A DNA stretch of 28,664 bases from a virus (taxonomy: Duplodnaviria > Caudoviricetes), in IMG/VR virus record IMGVR_UViG_3300032216_000291, positions 1 through 28,664 of that record. One strand, 5' to 3'. Positions 360 through 28,664 of this stretch are shown one piece after another. Position numbers and translations under genes: made by a program. A model generated the notes under the pieces. It did no database searches. It was not told the origin of the DNA and saw only the letters and a list, made by a program, of their open reading frames with translations. Position 1 is the stretch's first letter; each line of letters begins with the position of its first letter.

Positions 360-1832
360 TTAACGTTTGATTAGGTAAGACTTCAATGTGTCGACATCGA
401 TAGTCGCTGAGTAGATTCCACGCAATTCGCTTTCGCACTCTGCGGGGAACTTGTTGACGATGGCGTTCTCAAACGCTATCGATACAGGCATGCCACGTTG
501 CATCGCTCTTGCCCAAGCGAACAGTTGACGTAGTGATGGGGGCTGAGTCAGCAACCCCGCTCTCGCTTTCTCACGTGCGGTGTTGGCGAACCGAACAAGC
601 ACGTCAGTCGCATCGATGGGCAACAAGGTGCGCTTGTTGATCAGTGCAACCTCCTTGTCGTGAGGCAAGTAATCGAACTTGAGAGTGAAAGAGAACCGAT
701 CAAGGAAGGCAGTGTTCTTGCTACGAACACCGTCAAAGTTCCCGCTCTCGTCACCGTGACCGTTCGAGTTGTCAGCGCAGAAGAAGACCACGTGACTTGC
801 CACTGGGATGCGAACGCCTGTCTCGGCAATCACGATCGAGCGGTGAGGTGAGCGCTCGCACAAGGCGTGGAGCACTGCAAGGTTTTGACTACGTGCGAAC
901 CCGATCTCATCGAGCAGAACGATAGCACCCGCATGCTGAATCGCTTGAGTGATCACGCCCTCTTTCCATTCAACGTCACCGCCCTTGATGGTGTTACCGC
1001 CAATGAACTCGGCTCTCTCGATAGCCTCATCGAAGTTCACTCGGAAGAGTCTGCGACCAAGTCGACAGGCTACCTGAGAAACGAACTCGGTCTTGCCAGT
1101 GCCACGCTCACCGCCTAGCCACACATTGTCAGGCAAGGAGTCATCGAGGGCGATCAAGGTCTGATGCAAGTTCTTGGGATCGAACATGTAGTCATCGACC
1201 AAGGCGGGAGCATCAGGGTCAGCCCATATCTCAAGGGGCATCGCTCCGAAGTCTACAACCTGACCATCGTGATCGTATTGGCAAACGTCACCGAACACCT
1301 CGAAGGCAGTCTTGCGAACCGTCTTGGGCACGGCATTGGCAATCGCTACGATCTCCTCCCTTGGTGTGATCTTGCGGAAAGAATCGAACATGTCAGAGAC
1401 CTGAGACCTGATCACGTTCTCGACCTTGCCGTAGTCAACGCCTTGAATGCTTGTCACTGCATTGTTTAAACGAGCAGTCAGTTCGTTGAATTTTGCCTCG
1501 TTTGCGGTCTGTTGTCTCAGGTTGGAGTCGAGCAACTTGTCGGCTACCTCCTTGACACGTTTCACGCCATCGACCGCATTGGAAATGTCAGCCTGAGTCT
1601 GCATGATTTTCTGCTTGATCTCATCGTCAACCTTTGAGTTGGTAGCGAGAGCGGATGCCTGAGAGGGGACGGTTGCCTTGACCTCTGCAAGAGTGACCAA
1701 GCCGTTGTTGATCAGTTCGAGCACCGCCTTGACCGCATCGTTCTTGGTGATATGGAAAGGCAAACCTCGGTTGGTCAACACGGTGTTGAGCACAGGGGTC
1801 TGCATCTTGGAAAGTTCTAAAGTGATATTCAT
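360..1832 (-). CDS. MoxR/CbbQ/CobS-type AAA+ ATPase with an N-terminal coiled-coil extension
   Basis: Walker A GERGTGKT, Walker B IVLLDE, sensor/Arg finger FFCADN...AFLDRF, C-terminal PSLRQL lid motif; RBS AAGGAGG. Confidence 0.88.
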   Translation of the reverse strand: MNITLELSKMQTPVLNTVLTNRGLPFHITKNDAVKAVLELINNGLVTLAEVKATVPSQASALATNSKVDDEIKQKIMQTQADISNAVDGVKRVKEVADKLLDSNLRQQTANEAKFNELTARLNNAVTSIQGVDYGKVENVIRSQVSDMFDSFRKITPREEIVAIANAVPKTVRKTAFEVFGDVCQYDHDGQVVDFGAMPLEIWADPDAPALVDDYMFDPKNLHQTLIALDDSLPDNVWLGGERGTGKTEFVSQVACRLGRRLFRVNFDEAIERAEFIGGNTIKGGDVEWKEGVITQAIQHAGAIVLLDEIGFARSQNLAVLHALCERSPHRSIVIAETGVRIPVASHVVFFCADNSNGHGDESGNFDGVRSKNTAFLDRFSFTLKFDYLPHDKEVALINKRTLLPIDATDVLVRFANTAREKARAGLLTQPPSLRQLFAWARAMQRGMPVSIAFENAIVNKFPAECESELRGIYSATIDVDTLKSYLIKR

Positions 1833-1851
1833 GGTTTAAGCCTCCTTGAAA

Positions 1852-2448
1852 TTAAACGAGTTGAGTTGGTGTACCGCAGAAACATGTCGGCATGCCCTTG
1901 GTAGCGTTGAACTGAGAGATGCGAAACGAGAACTGCCATTTGACCTTGCCCTCAAGATCGGTCTCGATGCAACTGGGGCAAACGGCTTTCAGCATCCGAG
2001 TGGTTTGCGTCTTGCGGTCAGCCATCACGTCTAGGTTGGCGTGAGGGTATTCACCTAGCCCATCGATGAGAGAGGCGAACTCTTTCTTGAATCGATCCCC
2101 GATCTTGGTTGCGGTAGGTGCGCCCTCAAGGTACATCTTCTTGACCAGTTTAGGAAAGCGACCACGGTGACCGTCCCCCGCAGTGGCAGAGTGAGCAAGT
2201 TCGTGCACCATGATGCCCGCCACTTGCCAAGGGTCAGCCTCGACAGGGGAGATAAAGATTTCATGGTGACCGTCAGCACTGGAGGAGGGAGGATGCCACT
2301 CGCCCATCGCCCTGTTTAAAGCACGTGCATGGCGGGAAGGGAAACCGCATGTCACCCTGATCTTGTCAGGGAGTGGATAGCCGTAAGCGTCAAAGACAGG
2401 ACGCAATTCATCGACTAGGTTGTAGAGCCAAGGTTCACGGTGATTCAT
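1852..2448 (-). CDS. SprT-like zinc metalloprotease with a C-terminal Zn ribbon
   Basis: EIFISP...HELAH...GH zincin motif; C-terminal CPSC...CFCG; RBS GGAGG. Confidence 0.8.
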   Translation of the reverse strand: MNHREPWLYNLVDELRPVFDAYGYPLPDKIRVTCGFPSRHARALNRAMGEWHPPSSSADGHHEIFISPVEADPWQVAGIMVHELAHSATAGDGHRGRFPKLVKKMYLEGAPTATKIGDRFKKEFASLIDGLGEYPHANLDVMADRKTQTTRMLKAVCPSCIETDLEGKVKWQFSFRISQFNATKGMPTCFCGTPTQLV

Positions 2449-2636
2449 AGTAAGCCTCCAAGGAAGTTAAAGAAAGTGTCACGCCCGATACACTCACCTA
2501 GATGGCGAGAGCCGTCAGCGTAAACAAACGATTCACCGCAACCGCCCATGTAGTCGAGCAGTCCGATGCAGAGCAACGATGCGAACACCGATGCAAGCAA
2601 AATGTTGATTAGCACATAAAGAATTTTTTTAATCAT
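2445..2636 (-). CDS. small hypothetical membrane protein (63 aa)
   Basis: Start re-called at ATG 2636 (MIKKILYVLINILLASVFASLLCIGLL..., one hydrophobic N-terminal helix) with GAGG upstream; its stop overlaps the SprT-like start. Confidence 0.6.
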   Translation of the reverse strand: MIKKILYVLINILLASVFASLLCIGLLDYMGGCGESFVYADGSRHLGECIGRDTFFNFLGGLL

Positions 2637-2796
2637 TTTTAATGAACACCTCTTGAATACGCACGATCCATCGACCGCATTTTTCTTTGCTCTGTAGGAG
2701 CGCCATCTCTTCCGCTTGCTCATACATGTCGTAAATACCAATGACCTGACCAATAAAGTCTTCGTTGAAAACAACGACTTCAAATTTTTGATTCAT
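2629..2796 (-). CDS. hypothetical protein (55 aa), first gene of the leftward operon
   Basis: Start re-called at ATG 2796 behind a strong AGGAGA RBS: MNQKFEVVVFNEDFIGQVIGIYD... Confidence 0.65.
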   Translation of the reverse strand: MNQKFEVVVFNEDFIGQVIGIYDMYEQAEEMALLQSKEKCGRWIVRIQEVFIKND

Positions 2797-2824
2797 AAAT
2801 TCTCCTGTTAAGTTAAAGAAAGTG

Positions 2825-3082
2825 CATCTTGTTAGGCAGTGATATGCACTGCCCAAGGTAGATGAATTTTCATCATGCATGCGAACATGCATTACAAAGA
2901 ACAACCTATCGCTAGGGATTTCGCACTCGCCACAATCATCAGGTCATGGGTCAAAGCGGTCATGTGTTACGGTACAGGGTCTCGGCAGTTTCGCTCTTAC
3001 GCCCTCTAGTCTCCCGCTCACACTGCCCTCTTCTTGTTACTCGCTACGGCATTTGCGAGTCGATCAGTGCAATCACCAACCG
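2825..3082 (-). ncRNA. candidate structured leader RNA of the leftward operon
   Basis: Minus-strand hairpins at 3061-3082 (with G-U pairs), 3039-3060 (ACTCGC/GCGAGT), 2905-2916 (CCUA-GCGA-UAGG, GNRA loop), 2875-2892 (AUGCAUG-UUCG-CAUGCAU) and 2825-2864 (long interrupted stem). No convincing ORF. Confidence 0.45.
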
Positions 3083-3089
3083 AAAACTA

Positions 3090-3098
3090 ATAATAGCA
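3090..3098 (-). promoter_or_regulatory. putative extended -10 sigma70 promoter of the leftward operon
   Basis: Minus strand reads TG-C-TATTAT, about 7 nt upstream of the first leader hairpin. The -35 is poor. Confidence 0.45.
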
Positions 3099-3321
3099 CT
3101 ATTTAAACGGTCTAGCCACTATTACGGTTGACAAAAAACAACAAATTAACAAATATTTTTCAATAAGTTATTAGTAAACATCTGAGAATTATTTGAAAAC
3201 AAAAGTGTATTTGACCGATTTAAACGCCCTACAAGCGATTATTTATGGTGCAAGCACCTACCCCCTTACCGTGCTTGCGTTCGTGCAACCTGAGAGGTTT
3301 GTGGTCTTTAGTACTAATAAG

Positions 3322-3372
3322 TTATTCACATTTTTCTGTGGATAACTTTACTTATCAACACCCTGTGGATAA
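3322..3372. promoter_or_regulatory. cluster of four DnaA boxes (putative replication origin)
   Basis: TTATTCACA 3322-3330, TGTGGATAA 3337-3345, TTATCAACA 3352-3360 (1 mismatch), TGTGGATAA 3364-3372; consensus TTATNCACA. AT-rich tract at ~3130-3245. Confidence 0.7.
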
Positions 3373-3431
3373 CTAGATGGGATCGGAATGGTCTTGTTCG
3401 CTGTTGAGACTGCCTGTTTAAACAGCCTAAG

Positions 3432-3464
3432 TTAATGTATGCCACGCACCGTGCCATACATTAA
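3432..3464. repeat. inverted repeat / hairpin
   Basis: TTAATGTATG-C-CACG-CAC-CGTG-C-CATACATTAA: 14 bp stem with one mismatch, flanked by GTTTAAAC at 3416 and 3473. Confidence 0.8.
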
Positions 3465-3482
3465 AGTTCAACGTTTAAACGG

Positions 3483-3513
3483 TGAGCCTGTGATGAGCCT
3501 GTCGTGAGCCTGT
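3483..3513 (+). repeat. three direct repeats TGAGCCTGT at 11-bp period (iteron-like)
   Basis: Copies at 3483-3491, 3494-3502 and 3505-3513. Confidence 0.85.
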
Positions 3514-3612
3514 GAAAAGCGGGGACTCATAGCGTAGCGAAATGGTCAGGCGTTGTAGATCAGTGATAAGGTCAAGGAGTGTAGAAGTCATGTCCTAGAT
3601 GTCCTGATGTTG

Positions 3613-3641
3613 CGAACAGTGTACGAACAGATAGCGAACAG
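3613..3641 (+). promoter_or_regulatory. three CGAACAG direct repeats at 11-bp period (GAAC-N7-GAAC-N7-GAAC, alphaproteobacterial-type SOS box array)
   Basis: Copies at 3613-3619, 3624-3630 and 3635-3641, immediately upstream of TTGACA. The repeat is directly visible; the operator role is inferred. Confidence 0.6.
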
Positions 3642-3643
3642 TG

Positions 3644-3672
3644 TTGACAATCGATGTTTAAACGAACACCAT
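3644..3672 (+). promoter_or_regulatory. putative sigma70 promoter for terS / late operon
   Basis: Perfect TTGACA at 3644-3649, a 17-nt spacer containing GTTTAAAC, and a weak -10 CACCAT at 3667-3672. Confidence 0.4.
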
Positions 3673-3731
3673 ACGAATGAAATCACTCAGGGTCAAGGCA
3701 CTGGGCAACCACACTGAAAGGGAATGAAATC

Positions 3732-4343
3732 ATGGCAAACGACAAGCAAATGAATACAAGCACCACAAGCACGAACAATGCAAGCACAACGCCCGAGGGG
3801 GACTATGTCGAAGACATGCGGTCACGTGCGTCACAAGTAGAAGTAAAGGTAAAGAAGAATGGACTACCAAGAGGAGTGCATAGAGAGGAAACATCAACGA
3901 ATGGCAGAGACAAACGAATGACCGCAAAGATGCATGCATTCGCATCTAACGTGGTGCAAGGCATGAGTCCAAGCGATGCGTATAGGAGAGCATACGACAC
4001 GTCCAACATGTCAGAGGCGAGCACAATGTCAGAGGCGAACCGTTTATTGAAAGACCCAAGGATCACTCAGTTATTGGAGTCTTTTTGGACAACCCTCAAA
4101 GAAAACGTCATTGCTGATGCAGTTTCTACTCGGAGACACATCATGGCTGAGTTGTACGAACATGCTCAGAACAAGGAGGCTCAGTTGAGTAACCGATTGA
4201 AATCATTGGAGTTAATGGGCAGAGCAGTCGGCATGTTCACTGACAAGGTAGAGACCAAGACCGAGGAAGTCAATGTCGATACACTCAAGAAAGAACTGGA
4301 GTCTTCACTGCTACTGCTACAGTCAGCGAAGCCACTGCACTGA
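3732..4343 (+). CDS. terS: terminase small subunit
   Basis: HTH-like N-terminal block MTAKMHAFASNVVQGMSPSDAYRRAY...SEANRLLKDPRI and a RLKSLELMGRAVGMFTDKVE segment, both typical of TerS; lies upstream of TerL. Confidence 0.8.
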   Translation: MANDKQMNTSTTSTNNASTTPEGDYVEDMRSRASQVEVKVKKNGLPRGVHREETSTNGRDKRMTAKMHAFASNVVQGMSPSDAYRRAYDTSNMSEASTMSEANRLLKDPRITQLLESFWTTLKENVIADAVSTRRHIMAELYEHAQNKEAQLSNRLKSLELMGRAVGMFTDKVETKTEEVNVDTLKKELESSLLLLQSAKPLH

Positions 4344-4383
4344 GTTTAAACGGTGCTCCCCCTTGGCGAATGGCGTTGTGCGA

Positions 4384-4406
4384 CACCCACCACCCACCCA
4401 CCCCCC
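4384..4406 (-). other. potential G-quadruplex in the C/A-skewed spacer after terS
   Basis: Minus strand reads GGGGGG-T-GGG-T-GGG-TGGT-GGG. Confidence 0.5.
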
Positions 4407-4561
4407 GATCGTGGCGGTGCGCCCGCACGGTACACTACACTCAAAACTACACACCCCACCACAAACTGTAGTACACTACGAACGTTCTCTCCCACAGAGA
4501 CCCCCCCTTATGTTTTCAAATCGAAAGGGGTAGGGGTATATATATTTTTACAGGAGGCGTT

Positions 4562-4786
4562 ATGACCAAAGAAGAATACAACATATTGTTTCATAAAGAG
4601 CAACTTAATCTTGTTGCGTTTAAGCGCTTGATGGATTGCGATGAAGAAGTTTTGCGGTTAATTAACAGGGCGGTGCAAGAAGAACGTGAGGCGTGTGCAA
4701 AGGTAGCGGATGAATATGCTGAGGGGTTGGAACGTAATTATTCTGAAATCATTGCTGAAAAAATCAGAGCAAGGGGACAAGAATGA
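4562..4786 (+). CDS. hypothetical phage protein
   Basis: RBS AGGAGG; contains the EEREACAKVADE pattern common in small phage proteins. Confidence 0.75.
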   Translation: MTKEEYNILFHKEQLNLVAFKRLMDCDEEVLRLINRAVQEEREACAKVADEYAEGLERNYSEIIAEKIRARGQE

Positions 4787-5028
4787 CCAAAGACAAAGCA
4801 CTGGAAATGGCTTTAGAGTTGATAATAAAAATCAATAAAGAAGGATGGATGTTGGCAGATTTTGAGCCAGAGATGTATGCCTGCATTACTGCCATCAAAG
4901 AAGCATTAGCACAAAGAGTTGTACAAGTTAAGCCTTGGGAGTTCAATATGATGACGCAGGGCAAGGAAGATATAACAGGTGAGCCTATTGCATGGTCTCA
5001 GTGGCCCAATAAAGAACACAATGTTTAA
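4783..5028 (+). CDS. hypothetical phage protein
   Basis: ATGA overlap with the previous gene; ALEMALE...AIKEALAQ pattern common in small phage proteins. Confidence 0.7.
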   Translation: MTKDKALEMALELIIKINKEGWMLADFEPEMYACITAIKEALAQRVVQVKPWEFNMMTQGKEDITGEPIAWSQWPNKEHNV

Positions 5029-5034
5029 ACATTC

Positions 5035-5250
5035 ATGTACAATACGGTAACGTTACCACTTTGTTTTGCCATGAATCTCCAACTTGTACAACTAGCCCAA
5101 GAATGTATGAACTTGACCGTAGAGGAAATGAAGATACTCATACAGCACCTTAAAACACTCATTGACTCTGAAGAACTTTCTTCTGTCTCAAAATCAAGTT
5201 GGCGTAAACGCCAAGTCTTGGAACAAATGGAAAGGGAAAACAATGACTGA
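5035..5250 (+). CDS. hypothetical protein (start uncertain, possibly ATG 5071)
   Basis: Fills the gap in the + strand operon and overlaps the next start. Confidence 0.5.
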   Translation: MYNTVTLPLCFAMNLQLVQLAQECMNLTVEEMKILIQHLKTLIDSEELSSVSKSSWRKRQVLEQMERENND

Positions 5251-5473
5251 GAAACAAAAGTTGGTCTATGACTTCATCCAAACTTTTATTAAGATACGAG
5301 GGTTTTCCCCATCTTATTCAGAGATAGCACAAGGTTTGGGCATGCGTTCTAAGTCCAATATCCACCGTCATATTCATACTTTAAAAGAACGGGGATTGCT
5401 ACAGATCAAACCCCACATGATCAGGTCTATGAAAGTTGTGGACAATACCGTTAAACACGTACTTAGCCTGTGA
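5243..5473 (+). CDS. LexA-type DNA-binding-domain-only protein (winged HTH, no peptidase domain)
   Basis: Start re-called at ATG 5243 (76 aa): MTEKQKLVYDFI...GFSPSYSEIAQGLGMRSKSNIHRHIHTLKERGLL...PHMIRSM, matching the LexA N-terminal domain pattern. Confidence 0.85.
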   Translation: MTEKQKLVYDFIQTFIKIRGFSPSYSEIAQGLGMRSKSNIHRHIHTLKERGLLQIKPHMIRSMKVVDNTVKHVLSL

Positions 5474-6975
5474 CTCTTCTTACCCAACAAGAAATAACAC
5501 AGTATCGAGAACTGTTGGATGTCCTGCCTCCAGACCATCCCAACGTAACAAAAATAAATACCCTCTTTGTAGAAGACAAGAAAGAACGCTGTAGAAACAA
5601 CTTCTTGCCGTTCGTGCGTGAGATGTGGTCAGCCTTTATTCCCGGCAAGCACCACAGAGATATGGCAGAGGCGTTTGAGAGAGTAGCCGAAGGTAAGTTA
5701 AAGAGACTCATCATCAATATGCCTCCCAGACACACCAAGTCTGAGTTTGCATCTTTTCTTCTTCCCGCTTGGTTCTTAGGAAAATACCCTGAAAAGAAAA
5801 TCATTGAGACCGCCCACACCGCTGAACTGGCTGTAGGCTTTGGTCGTAAGGTCAGGAACTTGGTCAATACACCCAACTATCAGGCTATCTTCCCAACCAA
5901 ACTATCTACAGACTCCAAAGCCGCTGGACGTTGGAACACCAACAAAGGCGGGGATTATTTTGCGATTGGTGTTGGTGGTGCTGTAACGGGTAAAGGCGCT
6001 GACCTTCTCATCATTGATGATCCACACTCCGAACAAGAAGCCATGCAGGGTACTTCTTCAGTCTATGACCGAGTGTTTGAATGGTACAACTCTGGTCCTC
6101 GACAGCGTTTACAGCCGGGAGGAGCCATTATTATTGTGATGACTCGCTGGTCTAAGAAAGATTTAACGGGTCAAATCCTTGCAAATGCCGCAAGTCGTGA
6201 AGGAGATGAATGGGAAGTCATTGAATTTCCTGCTTTGATGCCTAGCGGAAAACCCTTATGGCCCGAATTTTGGAGCGAAAAGGAACTGCATGCCATCAAA
6301 ACAGAACTCCCAGTTAGTAAATGGGAAGCCCAGTACCAGCAAAATCCAACCTCAGAAGAGGGAGCCATCATCAAACGGGAGTACTGGAGAATCTGGGAGG
6401 ACGATAGCCCGCCTCCTATTGAGTACACCATCCAATCTTGGGATACAGCGTTTGAGAAAAACAACAGAGCAGACTTCTCAGCCTGCACCACATGGGGCGT
6501 TTTCTCCATGCCCAATGAAAACGGTGAAAGCCGTGCCAATATTATTTTGCTCAATGCCGTCAAAGAACGCATGGAGTTCCCAGAATTAAAAAGAAGAGCG
6601 TTTGAGCAATACAAAGAATGGGAACCAGATACCTGTATTGTGGAGAAAAGAGCGGCAGGCGCTCCATTGATTTATGAGTTAAGACAGATGGGAATTCCTG
6701 TTTCGGAATATACACCGGGTAAAGGAAGTGATAAGATAGCCCGTGTAAACGCCGTATCTGACCTGTTCTCGTCAGGTATGGTGTGGTGTCCTAACACTCG
6801 CTGGGCTGATGAAGTCATGGAAGAGTGCGCCTCTTTTCCAAATGGCGACCATGACGACTTGGTGGACTCAACGAGTCAAGCACTGTTAAGATTTCGGCAG
6901 GGTGGCTTTCTTCGTTTAAACAGCGATAGAGAAGATGAAGTTAAGCCATTTAAACGCAAGATGGCGTACTACTAA
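5470..6975 (+). CDS. terL: terminase large subunit
   Basis: Walker A MPPRHTKS, Walker B LLIIDDP, motif III VMTRW, QSWDTA and HDDLVDS RNase H nuclease residues; GTG start overlapping the previous stop. Confidence 0.95.
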   Translation: MTLLTQQEITQYRELLDVLPPDHPNVTKINTLFVEDKKERCRNNFLPFVREMWSAFIPGKHHRDMAEAFERVAEGKLKRLIINMPPRHTKSEFASFLLPAWFLGKYPEKKIIETAHTAELAVGFGRKVRNLVNTPNYQAIFPTKLSTDSKAAGRWNTNKGGDYFAIGVGGAVTGKGADLLIIDDPHSEQEAMQGTSSVYDRVFEWYNSGPRQRLQPGGAIIIVMTRWSKKDLTGQILANAASREGDEWEVIEFPALMPSGKPLWPEFWSEKELHAIKTELPVSKWEAQYQQNPTSEEGAIIKREYWRIWEDDSPPPIEYTIQSWDTAFEKNNRADFSACTTWGVFSMPNENGESRANIILLNAVKERMEFPELKRRAFEQYKEWEPDTCIVEKRAAGAPLIYELRQMGIPVSEYTPGKGSDKIARVNAVSDLFSSGMVWCPNTRWADEVMEECASFPNGDHDDLVDSTSQALLRFRQGGFLRLNSDREDEVKPFKRKMAYY

Positions 6976-6983
6976 GGATTCAC

Positions 6984-9410: not shown

Positions 9411-9604
9411 ACGACAAAATTTTAAAACTTTTATCCGAAAAGATAAATGACAGAGTGGCACAACTTCAAGAAGCCTTGGGTAGCGGAAGCGCCAAGGACT
9501 ACGTGGAGTACAAAGCAATGGTCGGAGAGATAAAAGGTCTGCTCACTGCCCGTTTAAACATCCAAGACCTACAAAAAAACCTTGAGGAGTCCGATGACGA
9601 CTGA
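9407..9604 (+). CDS. small conserved head-module hypothetical protein
   Basis: ATGA overlap with the portal stop; helical, with a DYVEYKAMVGEIKGL motif. Confidence 0.7.
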   Translation: MNDKILKLLSEKINDRVAQLQEALGSGSAKDYVEYKAMVGEIKGLLTARLNIQDLQKNLEESDDD

Positions 9605-10016: not shown

Positions 10017-10027
10017 GGAGTTTAAAC

Positions 10028-10960
10028 ATGGCTGAATTTGAAAAACCCGGCTTTAAATTTCCAGATGAAGGGACGGAAGTCTTTTCTAAAGAAGATGAGC
10101 CAAAGGTCAATATTGAAATTGAAATAGAAGACGATAGACCTGAGAATGACAGGGTTGACCCCTTGCCAGAAAACGTAAAAGAAGAACTTTACGATGACGA
10201 ATTAACAGATTACTCTGCAAAAGTTAAGAAAAAACTTTTACAGATGAAGAAACTGGCTCACGATGAAAGACGTGAGAAAGAGCAGGCGTTTAGGGAGCAA
10301 CAAGAGGCTATCAGTCTGGCTCAAAGAGTGATTGAAGAGAACAAAAGACTCAAAAGTCACCTCAATGAGAATGAAAAAAGCATTTTGCAGACTGTTTCCA
10401 AGACCGTTGAGATGGAAATGGAACAAGCAAAGCGTTCATATCGAGAGGCTTATGAGTCTGGAGATACTGAAAGGATGCTTGAAGCGCAACAAAAACTTAC
10501 CGAAATCTCGTTTAAACAAGAAAAGGTTAAGAATTTTAAGCCAACCCCTTTACAAGTTGAAGAACCTGTAGTACAAACTAGGCAACAGGTGACAGCACCA
10601 CGTCCTGATCCAACTGCGGTAACTTGGCAACAAGACAATCCTTGGTTTGGTCAAGATAAAGTAATGACGGGCATGGCTTTGGCTTTGCACGAACAACTTA
10701 AAGATGAAGGCGTGGCGCTATCATCACAAGAGTATTACAGACGCATCAATGATACGATGCGACATCGGTTCCCAGAGAAATTTGAGAACGAAGAACAAAA
10801 CGAGTCTCCTCGTACAAGACCAAGCACAGTTGTAGCACCTGCAACTCGTAGCACATCACCCAAGAAAATTAGATTGACCCAATCACAAATGGCAATCTCT
10901 AAAAAACTTGGATTAACCCCTGAACAATATGCACAAGCCGTGCTAAAAATGGAGTCCTAA
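10028..10960 (+). CDS. putative capsid scaffolding protein
   Basis: Acidic N-terminus, long coiled coil, C-terminal LTQSQMAISKKLGLTPEQYA helix pair; lies between portal and MCP. Confidence 0.65.
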   Translation: MAEFEKPGFKFPDEGTEVFSKEDEPKVNIEIEIEDDRPENDRVDPLPENVKEELYDDELTDYSAKVKKKLLQMKKLAHDERREKEQAFREQQEAISLAQRVIEENKRLKSHLNENEKSILQTVSKTVEMEMEQAKRSYREAYESGDTERMLEAQQKLTEISFKQEKVKNFKPTPLQVEEPVVQTRQQVTAPRPDPTAVTWQQDNPWFGQDKVMTGMALALHEQLKDEGVALSSQEYYRRINDTMRHRFPEKFENEEQNESPRTRPSTVVAPATRSTSPKKIRLTQSQMAISKKLGLTPEQYAQAVLKMES

Positions 10961-10961
10961 T

Positions 10962-13181: not shown

Positions 13182-13216
13182 AAAGGGGGTTTAAACACCC
13201 CCTTTTTTCTTTTTTT
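13182..13216 (+). terminator. rho-independent terminator after the MCP gene
   Basis: AAAGGGGGT-TTAAAC-ACCCCCTTT followed by a long T tract. Confidence 0.85.
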
Positions 13217-13313: not shown

Positions 13314-14033
13314 ATGGCACGTTCCACATTTGAAGGCCCGATTTTATCTGGCAACACTCGTTTTGGACCTCTTCGTAACGTTGGTTATTCTGACTTATCA
13401 CAAGAAACAAGCATTGTTTTAACAAACGTATCAAACGCAACTGCTGGTTATGGCGGTACTTCTGGTCAATTTGTTAATGGCAATCAAATACCCAATGTAA
13501 ACGCAGTTGTTTACACACCATCTTCAACAGCATCCCCACCTACAGCGGCAACAATTACCGCTGACTCTGTATCTACTACTACTGGTACTTTGTATCGTGG
13601 CGTAGTGTTCTATTTGCCTTATGGCTCAAGCCTTAATGATTTTTTGCTAGACACTAACGTGGCTATCACATTAGACAACGGAACTGTTGGTACTGTGACT
13701 GCAAAAATGGGGAATGCTTTTAATGCCACTACTTACGGTAGCGTTGCTTCCATGAATGCGGCAACAGGACGTAACACCATTGTTCAAACTGGTGCTCAAT
13801 TGTTGGCTGGTAATTCAACTTCTGGTGATATTACTCAGCCCGCACAAGGCAGTGGTTCATACGCTGGTTTGGCTTCCCAAGTCGTTGTAACTTTGACTAT
13901 TCCCTATACGGGAGGTGTAAGTGGTGTTTTGTCAGCAATTACGGCTGGAACATTTACATTCTGTTTGCGTTACACACAACTTGATGCCAATATTGGTACT
14001 AGCACAACTTACCCATACGGTAACTTTGATTAA
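13314..14033 (+). CDS. putative virion structural protein
   Basis: MARSTFEGPI start; T/G/S/A-rich beta composition; AAGGA RBS. Confidence 0.65.
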   Translation: MARSTFEGPILSGNTRFGPLRNVGYSDLSQETSIVLTNVSNATAGYGGTSGQFVNGNQIPNVNAVVYTPSSTASPPTAATITADSVSTTTGTLYRGVVFYLPYGSSLNDFLLDTNVAITLDNGTVGTVTAKMGNAFNATTYGSVASMNAATGRNTIVQTGAQLLAGNSTSGDITQPAQGSGSYAGLASQVVVTLTIPYTGGVSGVLSAITAGTFTFCLRYTQLDANIGTSTTYPYGNFD

Positions 14034-17917: not shown

Positions 17918-17926
17918 GAGTAGAAA

Positions 17927-18109
17927 ATGGGATACAAAAAAGCCGCAGATGGCATAGTTTCTAAAGGTAAAACAGACGCACAAGTCTTTCCTACTGATGG
18001 AAAAAAGATTATTGACAAAGGACCGAAGTCCAACAAAAGCAGTTTAAACAGCAACTACAAGTCAATGGGTCGCAACTTGGCACGTGCCGCTAATCAAAGG
18101 GGAAGATAA
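17927..18109 (+). CDS. small basic hypothetical protein
   Basis: AGGAG RBS; ADGIVSKGKT motif; MGRNLARAANQ. Confidence 0.7.
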   Translation: MGYKKAADGIVSKGKTDAQVFPTDGKKIIDKGPKSNKSSLNSNYKSMGRNLARAANQRGR

Positions 18110-18363: not shown

Positions 18364-18373
18364 GGTTTAAACA

Positions 18374-19036: not shown

Positions 19037-19443
19037 TTGTCCAAACCATTACCACCTCGTTCGTAGTAGATATTCTGCAAGGCTTACAGAGTCTTACTAC
19101 GGATACCATAAAAATGGCATTGTACACAGCGGATGCCAATTTGAGCGCCAGCACAACTGCGTATTCTTCTGCAAACGAGGTATCTTCTGGAAACTACTCT
19201 GCTGGAGGTGCTCCGTGTTTAAACGTCACAGTCAACCAGTACAACGGGACAGTTTACGTAAGTTTTGATAATGTAAGTTGGACAAATGTTTCCTTTACTT
19301 GTAGGGGCGCTCTTATTTATAATGTCACCAAGTCAAACAAATCAATTGCCGTATTGAATTTTGGTTCAGATAAAACTGCTGGACCAAATTTCACTGTGAC
19401 GTTACCAGCAAATACATCAACAACTGCGTTGATAAGAGTTTAA
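19033..19443 (+). CDS. virion structural protein (paralog of 19655-20131)
   Basis: KMALYT...ASTTAYSSANEVS-GNYSAGG...ALIYN...NKSIAVLNFGSD. Confidence 0.7.
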   Translation: MIVQTITTSFVVDILQGLQSLTTDTIKMALYTADANLSASTTAYSSANEVSSGNYSAGGAPCLNVTVNQYNGTVYVSFDNVSWTNVSFTCRGALIYNVTKSNKSIAVLNFGSDKTAGPNFTVTLPANTSTTALIRV

Positions 19444-19456
19444 ACAGGGAATCAGC

Positions 19457-19645: not shown

Positions 19646-19654
19646 GGAACCATC

Positions 19655-20131: not shown

Positions 20132-20141
20132 AGAGGTTTCT

Positions 20142-21035: not shown

Positions 21036-21044
21036 GGACTTTAA

Positions 21045-21908: not shown

Positions 21909-21917
21909 GGAGCAATC

Positions 21918-22319: not shown

Positions 22320-22332
22320 CTAGGAGGCTAAT

Positions 22333-23181
22333 ATGTCTCTTACGAAAGTTGGCGGAGTTCTTTCAGCCAGTTTAAACGGTCTTAACTATCCTGTAACAAC
22401 GGTAGAGTATCTTGTTGTCGCTGGTGGTGGCGGCGGTTCTTATAGTGGAAATCCCGGAGGTGGTGGCGGGGCTGGTGGATTATTGACTGCTACAGGTTAC
22501 TCAATCACTTTTGGTTCTACTATTACTGTTACTGTTGGCGCAGGTGGCCCGGGATTTTGGTCAGGAGTTTCTTATAACGGTTCTAATTCCGTATTTGGAA
22601 ATATCACCGCTTTGGGTGGCGGTGTTGGTAATGGTATATCTGGTGGTTCTGGTGGAGGCGGTAATTATAACACCACTGGGGGTTCTGGCACATCAGGTCA
22701 AGGAAACAATGGGGGTAACGGAGGTTATACTAACCCAAACTATGGGGGCGGAGGCGGAGGTGGCGCTGGTTCTGCGGGTTTAAATTCGGCTTCACCACTA
22801 TGGGCGGGTGATGGTGGGGCAGGATTAGTTTCTAGCATCACAGGTTCCCCTGTCCAGTATGCAGGGGGAGGTGGTGGTGGTGGATACAATGCCGCAAGGG
22901 CTTCATTAGGTGGTGGTGGTGGTGGTGGTAACGGTATAAATTTAGCCAACACAGCACAAAATGGTAATCCGGGCGTTGCAAATACTGGGGGCGGCGGCGG
23001 CGGTATAGGCGCAGGGGGCGGTATCAATCCTACTGGCGGTGCAGGTGGTTCAGGCATTGTAGTCATCAGATACCCATCAAATCTTGCTCCAGCCACATCA
23101 ACAACAGGTTCACCCAATACTTATATTTCAGGAACATACCGAGTGTATGTATTCACTGCCTCTGGCACAATCACATTCTAA
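22333..23181 (+). CDS. glycine-rich domain protein (putative adhesin / receptor-binding)
   Basis: VEYLVVAGGGGG...GGGGAGG...TVTVGAGG...ANTGGGGGG...GGSGIVVIRYP. Confidence 0.8.
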   Translation: MSLTKVGGVLSASLNGLNYPVTTVEYLVVAGGGGGSYSGNPGGGGGAGGLLTATGYSITFGSTITVTVGAGGPGFWSGVSYNGSNSVFGNITALGGGVGNGISGGSGGGGNYNTTGGSGTSGQGNNGGNGGYTNPNYGGGGGGGAGSAGLNSASPLWAGDGGAGLVSSITGSPVQYAGGGGGGGYNAARASLGGGGGGGNGINLANTAQNGNPGVANTGGGGGGIGAGGGINPTGGAGGSGIVVIRYPSNLAPATSTTGSPNTYISGTYRVYVFTASGTITF

Positions 23182-23189
23182 GGTTAACA

Positions 23190-25358
23190 ATGGCATCAGG
23201 ACTCTTTAATCTTAAAAACCAACTGCGTGGGCTTATTCAAAAGGCTTGGCCCAGACCACTTAGTTCTGCTGGAATATATGCTGGAGTATTTAGCGGTTCT
23301 AATAATTTAAGTCTTTCGGCAAACTCTGCTTTTGCATTTGGTTCTAATGATTACACAGTTGAGATGTGGGTTTACTCGCAAGGAACAGGTCAACAAATTC
23401 CTTATTGTTCTGGGGTTACAGGCACACTTAATTTTTATTTTAATTACAACCCAAGTGGTGGTTATATTGGTATAGGTACGCAAGCAGTATTTGTTTTACA
23501 AGCAACGGGCTTAACAATAAACTCTAATACTTGGTATCACATTGCCGCCAGTAGAGTTTCAGGAACTTTAAAATTGTTCTTAAATGGAACACAAGTTGCA
23601 TCAGGAACAGATAGTACAAATTGGATTCAAGCAGGTGGGCCTTTAATTGGTCAAACTGGTGGTGGGTCTTTATATTACACAGGTTCAATTACCAACTTAA
23701 GAGTTATCAATGGAACAGGGCTTTACACATCAAGTTTTACGCCATCAACAACGCCATTGACTGCTGTACCAAACACAGTTTTATTGACGCTACAAAATAC
23801 CATCTTTACTGACACTAGCGCAAACGCATTTGCAATTACAAATACTGGCGGAGTTACAACTCAACCTACAACTTTGTTTACCAACAATCCTTTGTACACA
23901 ATCCCATCAGTTGAATACCTTGTTGTAGCAGGTGGAAGTTCGGGGGGTGGAGGTGGATCATATGCTGGCGGTGGTGGTGGCGCTGGTGGATTACTTGCTG
24001 GAATTGCGTCTATTGCTGTAGGTTCATCTATTACTGTGACCGTAGGTGGAGGCGGCGCTGGAACTAGTGGCTTGGGAAATAATGGATCGAATTCTGTTTT
24101 TGGGAGTATTACTGCTAGTGGCGGAGGCGGTGGTTCCTATACGCAAACCGACAGTGGACTCAATGGAGGTTCTGGTGGAGGAGGTGGTGGTGGCACATCA
24201 GACACTTTTCATCCGTATGGCAATGGTATTCAAGGACAGGGTAACTCTGGTGGACTTGGGAAATATTATGCTAGTGGTGGTGGTGGCGGTGCTGGGACTA
24301 AAGGTATAGATGGTGCAGGTACATTCATTCCCTGTGGAAATGGCGGCGCAGGTGTTGCCTCGGCAATCAGTGGTGCTGTTGTTACATACTCTGGTGGAGG
24401 CGGAGGTGGAAGTTATGTTAGTCAGACAACTGGCAACGGAATTGGAGGTGTCGGAGGCGGGGGTACTGGCGCATACTATTCCTCTGCGGCTGGAACAGCA
24501 GGAACTGTTAACACGGGTGGTGGAGGTGGTGGAGGGAATCAAAACTTTGTAACATCAGGCGCAGGCGGCTCAGGCATTTGCATCATTTCATACCCAGACA
24601 CCTATAACGCACCTACAACATTAACAGGAACATATACTGCTTCTACAAGTGGTAGTGGTAGTTTTGCTCCTTTAAATACCTCAAGTTGGATTTATTACAA
24701 CGCTCCATCAAATCTTCAATTTGGTACTGGTGACTTTACTATTGAACTATGGGTGTACTTTACATCACTTTCTGGGACAAATTATTTAATTGATTTTAGG
24801 GGAACAAGTAATCCAACGGGAGCATCATTTGGTATGTATCAAAATAGTGCCGGATTACAATTATTTAATAACGCTACAACTATTAACTATGGAATGCCGT
24901 CCGCAAATACTTGGTACAACGTAGTATGGTCAAGAACAAGTGGAGTAACTTATTTTTTTGTTAATGGTACTTTAGTTAATTCTGGAGGTACAACAGATAC
25001 AGCAAACTACACAGCAGGTACAAATGGCCCATCTTTTGCTGGTAGTAGTTACTATGGTTTTTCTGCTGGTCTAAATTTTGGTCTTCAAGGATATATGTCT
25101 AATTTGCGGGTGTTAAAAGGAACAGGTTTGTATACATCAAACTTTACGCCATCAACAAAACCTTTAACTGCTATTACAAATACATCATTGCTTTTAAATA
25201 CTGTTTCAGGCGCTTATTTAGCAGATGGTTCAACAAATGCAAATGCCGCATCAGTTGCTGGCACAGTTTCATGGAACCAAGCATCCCCATTTGCAACAGG
25301 ACTAGGATACAAAAATCGTGTGTACACTTGGACAGCAAGCGGTACGGTGACCTTTTAA
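23190..25358 (+). CDS. LamG/concanavalin A-like + Gly-rich + LamG tail protein (putative receptor-binding)
   Basis: Two blocks of F/YTV/IExWVY...WY...R-SG...F-NG...G-ITNLRV/MSNLRV flank one Gly-rich domain. Confidence 0.85.
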   Translation: MASGLFNLKNQLRGLIQKAWPRPLSSAGIYAGVFSGSNNLSLSANSAFAFGSNDYTVEMWVYSQGTGQQIPYCSGVTGTLNFYFNYNPSGGYIGIGTQAVFVLQATGLTINSNTWYHIAASRVSGTLKLFLNGTQVASGTDSTNWIQAGGPLIGQTGGGSLYYTGSITNLRVINGTGLYTSSFTPSTTPLTAVPNTVLLTLQNTIFTDTSANAFAITNTGGVTTQPTTLFTNNPLYTIPSVEYLVVAGGSSGGGGGSYAGGGGGAGGLLAGIASIAVGSSITVTVGGGGAGTSGLGNNGSNSVFGSITASGGGGGSYTQTDSGLNGGSGGGGGGGTSDTFHPYGNGIQGQGNSGGLGKYYASGGGGGAGTKGIDGAGTFIPCGNGGAGVASAISGAVVTYSGGGGGGSYVSQTTGNGIGGVGGGGTGAYYSSAAGTAGTVNTGGGGGGGNQNFVTSGAGGSGICIISYPDTYNAPTTLTGTYTASTSGSGSFAPLNTSSWIYYNAPSNLQFGTGDFTIELWVYFTSLSGTNYLIDFRGTSNPTGASFGMYQNSAGLQLFNNATTINYGMPSANTWYNVVWSRTSGVTYFFVNGTLVNSGGTTDTANYTAGTNGPSFAGSSYYGFSAGLNFGLQGYMSNLRVLKGTGLYTSNFTPSTKPLTAITNTSLLLNTVSGAYLADGSTNANAASVAGTVSWNQASPFATGLGYKNRVYTWTASGTVTF

Positions 25359-25367
25359 GGAACAAGA

Positions 25368-26258
25368 ATGAGTGAATCTTTATTAGGCGGATTTCTTACG
25401 GCAACCTTTGACCCATTGGCGGCAGATAAAACCACGACTGTTGAATACTTGGTTGTGGCTGGAGGCGGCGGTGGAGGTGGCAACTATGGCGGTGGCGGTG
25501 CTGGAGGTTTGCTTACTGCCACAGGATATTCTATTACTGTTGGTAGTTCAATTACTGTAACTATTGGTGCTGGTGGCGCAGGTGGAGCGGCAGGAGCATA
25601 TGCTGGTACAAGTGGATCAAATTCAGCATTTGGTTCTTTAACTGCAATTGGTGGCGGTGGAGGAGGAGCAGGTAATCCACCTACAAATACACCCGCTCTT
25701 ACTGGTGGATCAGGCGGGGGCGCTGGAGTTCCTAATGGATCAGTAGGCGCTTCTGGAACATCTGGTCAAGGATATGCTGGTGGTAATTGTGTTTCAGATA
25801 ATTCAAACTACACCACAGGTGGTGGAGGCGGGGGTAGTGGTTCAGTAGGACTATCCTCAGCCTATAGCCCTAACGGCGGCAACGGAACAATATCTACAAT
25901 AACTGGCGCTAGAGTTGGATATGCAGGCGGTGGAGGCGGCTCTACAGACAATGCTAACAATACTGTTTACAGAGGCGGTTTAGGTTCTTGTGGTGGTGGA
26001 AACGGCGCTAATGGATCGGCTAATTCGGGAAGCACAGTACCCTCTACACCCGGTACAGCAAACACAGGTGGAGGAGGTGGCGCAGGGCAAATAGCGTATG
26101 GCAGTATATTACCTAGTTCAGGTGGATCAGGGATTGTGATTATTCGTTATCCAGCAAATTGTCCTGCTCCTGCAAGCACCACAGGTTTACAACAAGTTTT
26201 ATATAATTCAGGCTATCAAATTTATGTCTGGACTTCTTCAGGCACAATCACTTTTTAA
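25368..26258 (+). CDS. glycine-rich domain protein (paralog of 22333-23181)
   Basis: Same VEYLVVAGGG...GGLLTATGYSIT...GSGIVIIRYP...SGTITF architecture. Confidence 0.8.
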   Translation: MSESLLGGFLTATFDPLAADKTTTVEYLVVAGGGGGGGNYGGGGAGGLLTATGYSITVGSSITVTIGAGGAGGAAGAYAGTSGSNSAFGSLTAIGGGGGGAGNPPTNTPALTGGSGGGAGVPNGSVGASGTSGQGYAGGNCVSDNSNYTTGGGGGGSGSVGLSSAYSPNGGNGTISTITGARVGYAGGGGGSTDNANNTVYRGGLGSCGGGNGANGSANSGSTVPSTPGTANTGGGGGAGQIAYGSILPSSGGSGIVIIRYPANCPAPASTTGLQQVLYNSGYQIYVWTSSGTITF

Positions 26259-26270
26259 TGGAGTTTAAAC

Positions 26271-26654
26271 ATGGCACATTATGCACACATCACAAACGGA
26301 GTAGTTGATAACGTCATTGTTATTGATGCTGAAACATTGGCTACAGGTAACTGGGGTGATCCATCTGAATGGGTTCAAACCTCATACAATACTCAAGGCG
26401 GTGTTCATACCCAAGGCGGTACGCCACTTCACAAAAATTACGCTGGTATTGGTTACACTTGGGACGGCACAGGCTTTGCCCCACCACAGCCTTATCCATC
26501 ATGGACAAAGAATACTGAAACATATCAATGGTCTGCTCCAGTAGCCATGCCATCAGACGCAGGTACAGGCACTCCTCCTAAGATATATATATGGAACGAA
26601 GAAACAGTCAATTGGGTTGAAATGACTCATACAGAAACAAACACTCAGGCATAA
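26271..26654 (+). CDS. tail-fibre-associated protein (possible assembly chaperone)
   Basis: WVQTSYN...KNYAGIGYTWD...FAPPQPYPSW...W-APVAMP...YIWNE pattern seen beside Gly-rich fibre genes. Confidence 0.65.
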   Translation: MAHYAHITNGVVDNVIVIDAETLATGNWGDPSEWVQTSYNTQGGVHTQGGTPLHKNYAGIGYTWDGTGFAPPQPYPSWTKNTETYQWSAPVAMPSDAGTGTPPKIYIWNEETVNWVEMTHTETNTQA

Positions 26655-26657
26655 ATC

Positions 26658-28367
26658 ATGGCTCAATACAGTGGAATGTGGACTCTTAGTCAAGTAAGTC
26701 AGGCGGTTAAAAACCAGACTTGGACGGGTCTTCCTCCGTCTGTAGTTGAGTATTTGATAGTTGCTGGAGGTGGCGGCGGCGGAGCCTCTTCGGGCGTAGG
26801 TAGTGGCGGCGGTGCTGGCGGACTATTACAAGGATTCATGTCGGTAACAGCAGGTACTTCATACACGGTTACTGTAGGTACTGGTGGAACTGGAAGCCCT
26901 ACGAACGGCGTTGATTCTGTATTTAATAACATTACAGCCACGGGCGGCGGCGCAGGTGCAGGTGCTTATGGCGTAGGTAGTAATGGTGGATCAGGCGGAG
27001 GTTCTTGCGCCACTCCATCTTCTTCTGGCGGTCGAAGCGCAGTTGGTATCGGTGTCCCCGGTCAAGGCAATAATGGTGGTGGAGCCGATCAAGTGGGTTA
27101 CCAGCCATCTGGAGGTGGTGGAGGTGCAGGCACTGCTGGTATTGGTTCTGCGGCAAATGGTGGAACAGTATCAGGAAATGGTGGATCAGGCATAGCATCT
27201 AGTATTACAGGTTCAGTTGTTACCTATGCTGGAGGCGGCGGAGGCGGTTTAAACGGCGGTTTTGCTACTGCTGGTATTGGTGGAACAGGTGGGGGCGGCA
27301 ATGGATCAGGTTCTGGAGCCGCAACTGCTGGAGCCGCTAATACTGGCGGTGGAGGAGGAGGTGGTGGATATTCTGCTGGAGCCGCAGGTGGCTCTGGAAT
27401 AGTTGTTGTTCGTTATCTTGGTTCAGTTAAATTTTTTACTGGTGGCACTGTTTCATCTATTGGTGGATACATGATCCACACATTTACATCTAGTGGCACA
27501 TTGGCTCCTGCTACGCCTTCTACTACGGCTTATAGCGCATCTTATTTGGTTGTTGGTGGTGGCGGCGGAAGTTCAGAAATTGGTGGAGGAGGTGGAGGTG
27601 GCGGCTTCTTAACTGGCACAACAGGACTTGTTGCTGGTGTTGTTTACCCTGTGATTGTTGGTCTTGGTGGGTATGGATGTAACGCTAATAATGGTGGCAA
27701 TGGTGGTAATGGTGGTAATTCTGTATTTAATAATGCAATTGCAATTGGCGGTGGCGGTGGTTCTTATTACGGTGGTGATGGACAAACTGGCGGGTCAGGC
27801 GGTGGTAGTGGGCGAACTGGTGGGGCAGTAGGATCAGGATTTCCGAGTCAAGGATATGCTGGCGGTACAGGTTCTTTTGCAAGCAGTATAAGCCTTGCAG
27901 GTGGTGGTGGTGGTGCAGGTGCTGTTGGTGGAAATTGTGTACCTACTACTGGCCCAAGTGGAAGTGGTGGAGTAGGTTTAACAACCACATTGATTACGAC
28001 TTCTCAAGCAACATCAGCAACTGTAGGGCAAGTTGTTTCATCTTCAGTTTATTTTTCTGGAGGTGGTGGAGGTGGTGCGTATAGCGGTTCTGCCTCACCG
28101 GGGTCTGGTGGTTATGGTGGCGGCGGTAATGGAAATAATGGTTTATACACCTCTGGTTATTCTGGGACAGCAAATACTGGAGGCGGTGGAGGCGGTGCTG
28201 GAGGCGGTGGTACTACGGGTATTGGTGGATCTGGTGGCTCAGGTTGTGTAATTGTTTCCGTGCCAAGTGCAAGTTACACAGGAACTTATACAGGATCCCC
28301 CACAGTAGTTACCAATGGATCTAACACGGTTTTGATATTCAAAGCCAACGGAAGTTACACGGCATAA
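26658..28367 (+). CDS. protein with two tandem glycine-rich domains (putative adhesin)
   Basis: VEYLIVAGGG...GSGIVVVRY followed by ASYLVVGGGG...GSGCVIV. Confidence 0.8.
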   Translation: MAQYSGMWTLSQVSQAVKNQTWTGLPPSVVEYLIVAGGGGGGASSGVGSGGGAGGLLQGFMSVTAGTSYTVTVGTGGTGSPTNGVDSVFNNITATGGGAGAGAYGVGSNGGSGGGSCATPSSSGGRSAVGIGVPGQGNNGGGADQVGYQPSGGGGGAGTAGIGSAANGGTVSGNGGSGIASSITGSVVTYAGGGGGGLNGGFATAGIGGTGGGGNGSGSGAATAGAANTGGGGGGGGYSAGAAGGSGIVVVRYLGSVKFFTGGTVSSIGGYMIHTFTSSGTLAPATPSTTAYSASYLVVGGGGGSSEIGGGGGGGGFLTGTTGLVAGVVYPVIVGLGGYGCNANNGGNGGNGGNSVFNNAIAIGGGGGSYYGGDGQTGGSGGGSGRTGGAVGSGFPSQGYAGGTGSFASSISLAGGGGGAGAVGGNCVPTTGPSGSGGVGLTTTLITTSQATSATVGQVVSSSVYFSGGGGGGAYSGSASPGSGGYGGGGNGNNGLYTSGYSGTANTGGGGGGAGGGGTTGIGGSGGSGCVIVSVPSASYTGTYTGSPTVVTNGSNTVLIFKANGSYTA

Positions 28368-28376
28368 GGAGCAGAC

Positions 28377-28664
28377 ATTGATCCTTTCACTCTTGTTGCC
28401 CTTGCATCCTCTGCGTTTAAACTCGTCAAAGAATCATGCGAGATGTACAAAGAGGGGCGGCAATACGTCCTTGATGCCAAGGCTGAAGTTGAAGGTGTAG
28501 TTAAAGATTTGAAGGGTGTCCAAGCGGATGCCAAGGGAGTGTGGGGTTTCTTAACGGGTCTTTTTGGTGGCAAGAAAGAAGCAATTCAACAAAAATCTGT
28601 TGAAAAGCCCGTTAAAAAGGTAAAAGCCAAGGCTCCTGAGTTTGATGAGAATCAGATTTATGCC
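28377..28664 (+). CDS. hypothetical protein with an apparent ATT start (3' truncated)
   Basis: Not in the ORF track. AAGGAG, 5 nt, then ATT GAT CCT TTC...; open for 96 codons to the edge: (M)DPFTLVALASSAFKLVKESCEMYKEGRQY... Confidence 0.6.
   Translation, partial: MDPFTLVALASSAFKLVKESCEMYKEGRQYVLDAKAEVEGVVKDLKGVQADAKGVWGFLTGLFGGKKEAIQQKSVEKPVKKVKAKAPEFDENQIYA

Follow-up and report, generated by a model that had tools for sequence, protein, structure and literature searches.

Placement of the octamer in the window

The window, a 28,664-nucleotide stretch of freshwater-phage DNA, contains 20 perfect copies of the palindromic octamer GTTTAAAC where 0.76 would be expected (~25 times chance, one copy per 1.4 kb), all of which had been correctly located in an initial annotation. 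The first copy (1464–1471) lies in an AAA ATPase gene, encodes Arg-Leu-Asn and is kept in 19 of the 24 aligned loci. Two copies (3416–3423 and 3473–3480) occupy a divergent control region, and another (3656–3663) falls, as previously proposed, in the spacer of a putative terS promoter on the plus strand (3614–3672). This promoter comprises three GAAC motifs with an 11-base period (3614, 3625 and 3636), TTGACA (3644–3649), a 17-base spacer and CACCAT (3667–3672); 10 of the 22 relatives listed share this layout, spacer word included, and across 26 aligned loci this site reads GTTTAAAC in 22 and GTTTACAC in 4. The following copies lie immediately 3' of the terS stop (4344–4351) and at 5023–5030, where the word provides a TAA stop. 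The terL gene carries the variant GTGTAAAC on the plus strand (6743–6750) and, near its 3' end, an exact copy encoding Arg-Leu-Asn (6914–6921). With kinship uncorrected, the exact word is found at this terL site in 28 of the 29 relatives encoding Arg-Leu-Asn; of 78, likewise uncorrected, 28 have the terL site, 15 have a site ~35 bases downstream and none has both.

Further along, copies occur in the gap between RBS and ATG (10020–10027, 18365–18372 and 26263–26270), at a position where the word again provides a TAA stop (19438–19445), and in the loop region of a terminator hairpin 3' of the major capsid gene (13189–13196), where a G/C hairpin (-14 kcal/mol) with T runs after it bears out the terminator annotated there. 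Within genes, the word is read as Arg-Leu-Asn in a 65-aa gene 3' of portal (9552–9559; exact word in 14/14 aligned relatives), Gly-Leu-Asn in a DUF6321 gene (14611–14618; 10/11 aligned loci), Ser-Leu-Asn at 18042–18049, Cys-Leu-Asn at 19217–19224, and Ser-Leu-Asn and Gly-Leu-Asn in Gly-rich genes (22370–22377 and 27247–27254, respectively). The Phe-Lys frame is used in a 310-aa gene (10510–10517), where the site is not conserved, and in an uncalled ORF that starts at ~28377 and exits the window (28415–28422). A second GTGTAAAC lies on the minus strand (13509–13516) and reads GTTTACAC on the plus strand. The family consensus of the word is Y-GTKTAAAC-R.

GTTTAAAC is the commonest 8-mer of the window and its only palindromic octamer with more than 4 copies, a number that was also the maximum reached by GTTTAAAC in 100 shuffled windows. 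The excess persists under a codon-preserving null, with 9 in-gene copies in the 41 called genes against a mean of 0.83 and a maximum of 4 in 1000 shuffles. Moreover, placement is low-cost: among the 19 sites at window positions 360–28367, 10 contact non-coding DNA or a stop codon, compared with 6.3% of positions (P = 5e-8), and these are exactly the ten that had been named as junction sites. An accompanying enrichment of near-matches was not recovered, since the window holds 23 one-mismatch sites vs ~23 expected from an order-3 model, and two of those cited (11422 and 21039) are two mismatches off.

GTTTAAAC is present in 79 of 80 terminase relatives, and it was found in relatives from many separate metagenomes as well as in cultured GenBank phages. 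When contigs from four other studies were compared with the window over positions 1400–5300, those of three studies spanned sites 1464, 3416, 3473, 3656, 4344 or 5023 (among the contigs listed), and none of the differences listed falls within a word. We found nothing in favour of an assembly or library artefact or of a compositional effect; because cultured genomes carry the word and the codon-aware null is exceeded, this explanation is already refuted, as the initial annotation had anticipated for an artefact.

The word resembles HIP1 (GCGATCGC), also an over-represented palindromic octamer under selection and of similar density (one per 1131 bp in Synechocystis; PMC6604393). HIP1 differs in belonging to a cyanobacterial chromosome and in having methyltransferase sites at its core (PMC6604393), whereas GTTTAAAC is restricted to mobile elements and goes with a protease gene. 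Despite the likeness in density, a host-driven word of this type, or a methyltransferase mark copied into the phage, is very improbable. None of 121 bacterial genomes from one betaproteobacterial order, a sample that may not include the real host, was enriched in the word; the densest reached 0.04/kb, and densities were mostly lower than for a control word. Scanning bacterial genomes (15/64 parts) for triple words turned up mostly tandem repeats, and in none of 120 such loci did the number of separate clusters exceed 5. No methyltransferase was found in the phage ORFs covered, which comprise the 41 of the window and 48 larger non-structural ones from two complete relatives. The methyltransferase mark, nick site and host signal suggested initially are thus unsupported, and the broader proposal of a DNA word selected for a protein reader is supported.

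The SprT-like protein and the variants of the word

The likely partner gene, ORF 1852–2448 on the minus strand, had been overlooked. It encodes a SprT-like zinc metalloprotease (phrog_6361) with an HExxH motif (H82, E83 and H86; 2191–2205, minus strand), invariant in 59/59 aligned proteins, and a third histidine downstream (H94); all four residues are invariant. The protease fold spans residues 1–132, with human SPRTN (6MDX) as the best match (Z 8.7, rmsd 3.2, 97 residues) and Wss1 (5XBN) at Z 7.4. Thus, the protein has the HExxH motif, downstream histidine and zincin fold of the SprT/SPRTN-Wss1 clan; it has no Pfam match of its own, and the proteins P0089 and P0115 carry PF10263. Like SPRTN/Spartan and Wss1, it joins this fold to a small zinc-binding tail. 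SPRTN and Wss1 target DNA structure and cross-links and are not known to depend on a sequence word; neither is known to have a dispersed target word.

The C-terminal tail, consisting of a K-x-Q-x-T-R-M-x-K strand (the Q-x-T-R strand) and a four-Cys zinc ribbon of the form CxxC...CxC (1882–2013, minus strand), is the predicted DNA-reading part. When the C-terminal domain was examined as a candidate WRKY/GCM-type beta-sheet DNA-binding domain, GCM (1ODH) ranked top in Foldseek at E 0.76 (VIA-align Z 2.2) and the best Z overall was 2.9; the isolated tail had no clear fold match. All ESM Atlas matches were below 0.9, the best E in a PDB sequence search was 0.075, and no family in NCBIfam or PADLOC reached its cut-off.

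The asymmetric GTGTAAAC stands in for the palindrome at an orthologous site and is the form used by three actinobacteriophages, and the symmetric GTGTACAC occurs in none of the 7 records counted, which makes the dimeric reader proposed initially doubtful. We also considered a residue-base code linking Q-G-T-R to GTGTAAAC, which was rejected because many Q-G-T-R proteins accompany GTTTAAAC. Recognition of the word as a hairpin was rejected as well, since, of 1084 distinct sites, 394 (36%) have flanks that pair, vs 34% expected.

Co-occurrence of the word and the gene

The distribution of word and gene was examined in hand-picked named records (12 of 164 phage matches and 4 of 74 plasmid matches), with distant subfamilies sampled through these records and a word-first scan. 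Every one of the 13 named elements, phage or plasmid, whose strand is intact carries GTTTAAAC or GTGTAAAC. These include 10/10 cultured phages, whose hosts are Alpha-, Beta- and Gammaproteobacteria and Actinomycetota, with GTTTAAAC in R5C (17 copies), Alexa (8), Mica (7), MQ-4 (6), ECO1230-10 (5), Persinger (4) and Mano (4), and GTGTAAAC in the Microbacterium phage Floof (16), the Arthrobacter phage Crewmate (21) and LazerLemon (40), where order-3 expectations are 0.09–1.6; the 3/3 plasmids have 5, 18 and 6 sites. Within one clade, the word occurs in all 80 viral loci around close homologues, with 849 sites vs 16 expected. Selection on the word alone gave a concordant picture: among 46 contigs picked for a triple word, the protein is encoded in 9 of the 12 with at least 0.45 sites/kb and in none of the 34 below this density (P = 2e-7). 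The three dense contigs without the gene are 20–48% complete.

Seven homologues that keep the protease and have lost or altered Q-x-[T/I/V]-R (those of Epa5, LK3 and an R. insidiosa plasmid, and four encoded on chromosomes) have 0–1 words each; for Epa5, LK3 and the four chromosomal cases, no convincing alternative cognate word was found. Similarly, 7 of 8 records without sprT showed no word enrichment. SWEP2 has 20 GTGTAAAC and no sprT, indicating that the word can be retained where the gene is missing; its alignment with Maureen is compatible with a deletion between repeated promoter units, by which SWEP2 apparently lost sprT.

Since unrelated phages and plasmids that carry the gene with an intact tail have the word, the word is likely a docking site of the SprT-like protein on the element's own DNA. 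The product of ORF 1852–2448 is accordingly the likely reader, and we predict with good confidence that it binds the word directly. Another phage or host protein (a nucleoid, packaging, partition or recombination factor) could read the word while sprT merely travels with it, as the retention of the word in SWEP2 and the 3–5-site clusters near terS/terL in several lineages might suggest. This is improbable given that the carriers cover two host phyla and include both phages and plasmids, that no window protein other than SprT was found in L100, L146 and L157, and that word loss tracks the loss of one SprT strand.

Possible function of the proposed docked protease

We propose that the selected word travels with the SprT-like ORF, that it would be recognised on DNA by the Q-x-T-R strand together with the zinc ribbon, and that the HExxH protease would likely clear host proteins off the element's own genome, acting in cis on DNA-bound proteins that may be restriction, silencing or cross-linked proteins. 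A promoter copy of the word would, in addition, allow sprT to repress itself. To this whole chain, a word-docked SprT-like protease guarding its own genome, we assign a probability of about 0.5. The wider proposal, with odds somewhat short of even, is that phages and plasmids of at least two phyla share a self-marking module made of a sequence-specific DNA-tethered protease and an 8-base word spread over their own genomes, which would form a picket line destroying the host proteins that act on this DNA.

The same protein might instead be a global repressor or immunity factor acting on dispersed operator- or stoperator-like sites, with proteolysis secondary, for instance at induction; we regard this as unlikely, though a repressor would account at least equally well for the promoter copies and the Liebe phenotype. 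The word lies at the +1 position or within the spacer of putative promoters. A copy upstream of the sprT start sits immediately 3' of a -10-like hexamer in Crewmate, which has four repeated putative promoter units, and in six integrase-linked proteobacterial phages; in Floof the copy overlaps such a hexamer. These copies count for our main reading too. In two unrelated phage groups sprT is near an integrase. Moreover, Cluster AZ is without an identified repressor, and there the sprT-truncated Arthrobacter phage Liebe forms clear plaques and the Arthrobacter phage Maureen turbid ones (10.1101/2025.05.26.655371). Cluster A phages (L5, D29) have ~24 dispersed sites for their own repressor, mostly intergenic and one overlapping a promoter; these stoperators are conserved in D29 (PMC5712189), which SWEP2 resembles in keeping its sites. 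The word shows the same pattern of many dispersed, mostly intergenic sites with one at a promoter. Stoperators are 13 bp, asymmetric and oriented one way (PMC5712189), whereas the word has 8 bp, is palindromic in the window and only weakly oriented in three actinophages (38/57 one way when pooled, P = 0.016), lies in genes in half of its copies, and is paired with a protein of protease fold whose catalytic residues are invariant. Also against a repressor, plasmids carry the word next to rep/parA, the scanned ORFs of two complete relatives yielded no integrase, and BaileyBlu and Halsey, which both encode a serine integrase, have neither sprT nor the word.

Returning to the tethered protease, a parallel on a mobile element is ArdC of plasmid R388, an antirestriction protein that also combines a DNA-binding domain with a Spartan-like metalloprotease (PMC7213743). 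ArdC differs in its non-specific ssDNA binding, its reversed domain order and its lack of a known cognate word (PMC7213743); an ssDNA-binding domain of this kind at the N-terminus is not present in the SprT-like protein, whose first 132 residues form the protease fold. The protease activity of ArdC is dispensable for antirestriction (PMC7213743), which counts against our reading.

The Cluster AZ proteins annotated as 'SprT-like protease' (Lizalica gp46 and Maureen gp49) belong to the same family, with 33–37% identity, and have been predicted to carry a DNA-binding tail and suggested to act in lysogeny (10.1101/2025.05.26.655371). The available text of that preprint contains neither GTGTAAAC nor GTTTACAC and proposes no target word, and we found no description of the pairing between word and sprT in the literature searched, in which subscription journals were thinly covered. 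If true, the pairing would provide a target sequence for a widespread phage gene annotated merely as 'SprT-like protease', a possible identity for the immunity repressor missing in Cluster AZ, and a sequence-targeted protease, a kind for which the same literature gave no description.

Finally, our reading is favoured by an even spacing of the word in LazerLemon, Floof, Crewmate, SWEP2, R5C and a Magnetospira plasmid (P from <0.0002 to 0.03). Counting against it, the window (P = 0.28), Mica (P = 0.05), ECO1230-10 and pUT1 showed no such spacing, nor did seven longer metagenomic contigs, the majority with a higher number of sites around sprT or the control region.

Excess of the word in the window and its terminase relatives

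The window represents 28.7 kb of a tailed-phage genome. Its leftward genes encode an AAA ATPase and a 198-aa ORF (1852-2448, minus strand; sprT), and its rightward genes are terS, a LexA-type HTH gene, terL, portal, GroES, capsid and Gly-rich genes. Its terminase shares 52-60% identity with those of HTVC023P-type pelagiphages and DSL-LC04, and the sequencing runs containing this phage are mostly freshwater metagenomes. The initial annotation claimed 20 copies of the palindromic octamer GTTTAAAC (the word), and 20 were indeed observed versus 0.76 expected. The excess held against a codon-aware null, with 9 copies in genes versus 0.83 (1000 synonymous-codon shuffles, maximum 4), and the claimed junction placement was borne out, 10 of 19 sites contacting non-coding DNA or a stop codon versus 6.3% of positions. 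Near-matches, also noted there, are not enriched. The GTTTAAAC excess is real, is under selection and is linked to a named gene of the window, ORF 1852-2448.

We considered whether the word could be a HIP-type word of the host; however, the densest of 121 genomes, all from the taxonomic order to which a Zoogloea genome belongs, had 82 sites in 2.0 Mb, versus 0.70/kb in the window. A methylase or nickase mark is another reading, but the methyltransferase sought as a co-occurring gene was absent from 48 ORFs, each 110 aa or longer, in two complete relatives. HNH and endonuclease VII genes are present in one of these (G048), and neither was seen among the scanned ORFs of the other (G049).

Related phages share the octamer: it occurs in 79 of 80 terminase-relative loci (566 sites over 810 kb), with a preference for Y on the 5' flank and R on the 3' flank, and the asymmetric variant GTGTAAAC is also over-represented there (153 vs 19 expected). 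Four cultured terminase relatives showed neither word enrichment nor a SprT homologue. Of 26 aligned loci, 22 have GTTTAAAC at site 3656 and the other 4 have GTTTACAC. In 10 of 22 relatives shown, the word sits within the spacer of a TTGACA-N17 promoter-like element, which is conserved. At the terL end, kinship being ignored in both counts, the exact word is found in 28 of 29 relatives encoding Arg-Leu-Asn there, and among 78 relatives 28 have this site, 15 have another ~35 bases downstream and none has both.

Avoidance of four-base palindromes varies among terminase relatives, and the word persists regardless. In the whole window, AGCT (0 vs 104 expected) and CGCG (0 vs 46) are missing and GGCC and CCGG are strongly depleted; the sets avoided in relatives differ (GATC, CCGG, GGCC), which suggests differing host restriction systems. 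Immediately 5' of the terS -35, positions 3614-3639 hold three GAAC copies with an 11-base period, retained in many relatives, which we take to resemble the alphaproteobacterial LexA box GAAC-N7-GAAC. Positions 5243-5473 encode a LexA DNA-binding domain without peptidase, and 22333-28367 four Gly-rich paralogues (PF21722), of which one carries two Laminin G domains.

Joint distribution of the word and sprT

Viral contigs were scanned for three close GTTTAAAC copies, giving 95 loci; many of the densely marked ones encode a homologue of the sprT product, and some of these have nothing else in common with the window. Among 46 contigs drawn from these loci (longer, giant viruses excluded), 12 reached a density of 0.45 sites/kb or more, and 9 of these encode the protein, versus 0 of the 34 less dense ones; the three dense contigs without it are 20-48% complete. 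Starting from the protein, the word was present in 80 of 80 loci of close homologues. A literature search found no account of this pair. Separately, contigs L089, L111-L113, L135, L143, L158, L161 and L166 have a common cluster of GTTTAAAC/TTTAAA repeats; those searched lack a SprT homologue, so this cluster may belong to an operator system of its own.

For host diversity, 12 of the 164 phage and 4 of the 74 plasmid homologue matches were chosen. The Q-x-[T/I/V]-R strand of the C-terminal tail is kept in ten phages and three plasmids, all 13 of which carry GTTTAAAC or GTGTAAAC; word counts far exceed expectation in 12 of these 13, those for which it was computed, and the Caulobacter plasmid has 6 words and no control word. 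Phages Epa5 and LK3 keep the protease with a tail devoid of strand and cysteines, and have 0 and 1 words. The R. insidiosa plasmid protein has Q-T-R-R-H in place of the strand, with 0 words. In four chromosomal homologues the strand is missing although protease and ribbon are retained, and the surrounding 10-40 kb contain no word.

Some further features of these loci were observed. The R. insidiosa plasmid carries GTGTACAC twice with common flanks (L420:192 and L420:3233; 2 vs 0.32 expected), one copy just upstream of the variant sprT, possibly reflecting a changed specificity. In Epa5 (L393-L396), CCCTGGGC occurs 57 times vs 9.7 expected, an excess not seen in LK3. The chromosomal SprT-zinc-ribbon homologues without the Q-x-T-R strand, present in 4 of 121 genomes (L461-L464), lie amid housekeeping genes. 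On plasmids L309, L417, L418 and L419, sprT is near parA in all four, directly upstream in three, and near rep in three.

Phages related to actinobacteriophage cluster AZ but without sprT have few words (BaileyBlu 0, CallinAllBarbz 1, Halsey 0), except SWEP2, with 20, which argues against strict dependence of word on gene. SWEP2 has one promoter-plus-word unit and Maureen two, on either side of sprT, a pattern consistent with deletion between the repeats.

Site placement, the SprT-like protein and a proposed mechanism

In six integrase-linked proteobacterial phages, the word lies upstream of sprT, 6-9 bases past a -10-like hexamer; in this region it abuts the -10 in Crewmate, which has four -10/word units, and overlaps it in Floof. 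No word lies within 130 bases of the sprT start in R5C, plasmid pUT1 or the Caulobacter plasmid. Elsewhere, copies occur between RBS and ATG, at stop codons and in the centres of hairpins, where a word would probably cost little. In six named records the words are spaced more evenly than by chance; this was not seen in three others, the window or seven longer metagenomic contigs.

Across 59 homologues, H82, E83, H86, H94, Q148, R151, C157, C160 and C189 are invariant. The predicted structure (pLDDT 91) best matches SPRTN (Z 8.7), followed by abylysin, selecase, jannalysin and Wss1 (Z 7.4-7.9). Its tail is modelled as a beta hairpin, a short helix and a zinc ribbon, and a structural search with the tail gave no clear match.

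A repressor acting through the word was supported by the copies at promoters and by clear plaques of sprT-truncated Liebe, as reported in an AZ preprint (10.1101/2025.05.26.655371); this reading was then weakened, since carriers include plasmids, word orientation is weak and the catalytic residues are invariant. We favour instead a tethered protease. The SprT tail probably binds YGTKTAAACR, the promoter copy would limit the protein's own synthesis, and dispersed words would keep the protease on the element's DNA, so that host proteins are removed in cis; we give this whole chain a probability of about 0.5. The closest antirestriction precedent is ArdC, whose protease was dispensable for that activity (PMC7213743), and the closest site systems are stoperators (PMC5712189) and HIP1 (PMC6604393); the one-way orientation of stoperators was not found for the word, whose orientation is weak at most.

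Directly downstream of sprT lies a MoxR/CobS-type AAA ATPase gene (window 360-1832; L451:3107-6507), followed in relatives by CobT/VWA-like genes; the ATPase is a possible remodelling partner.
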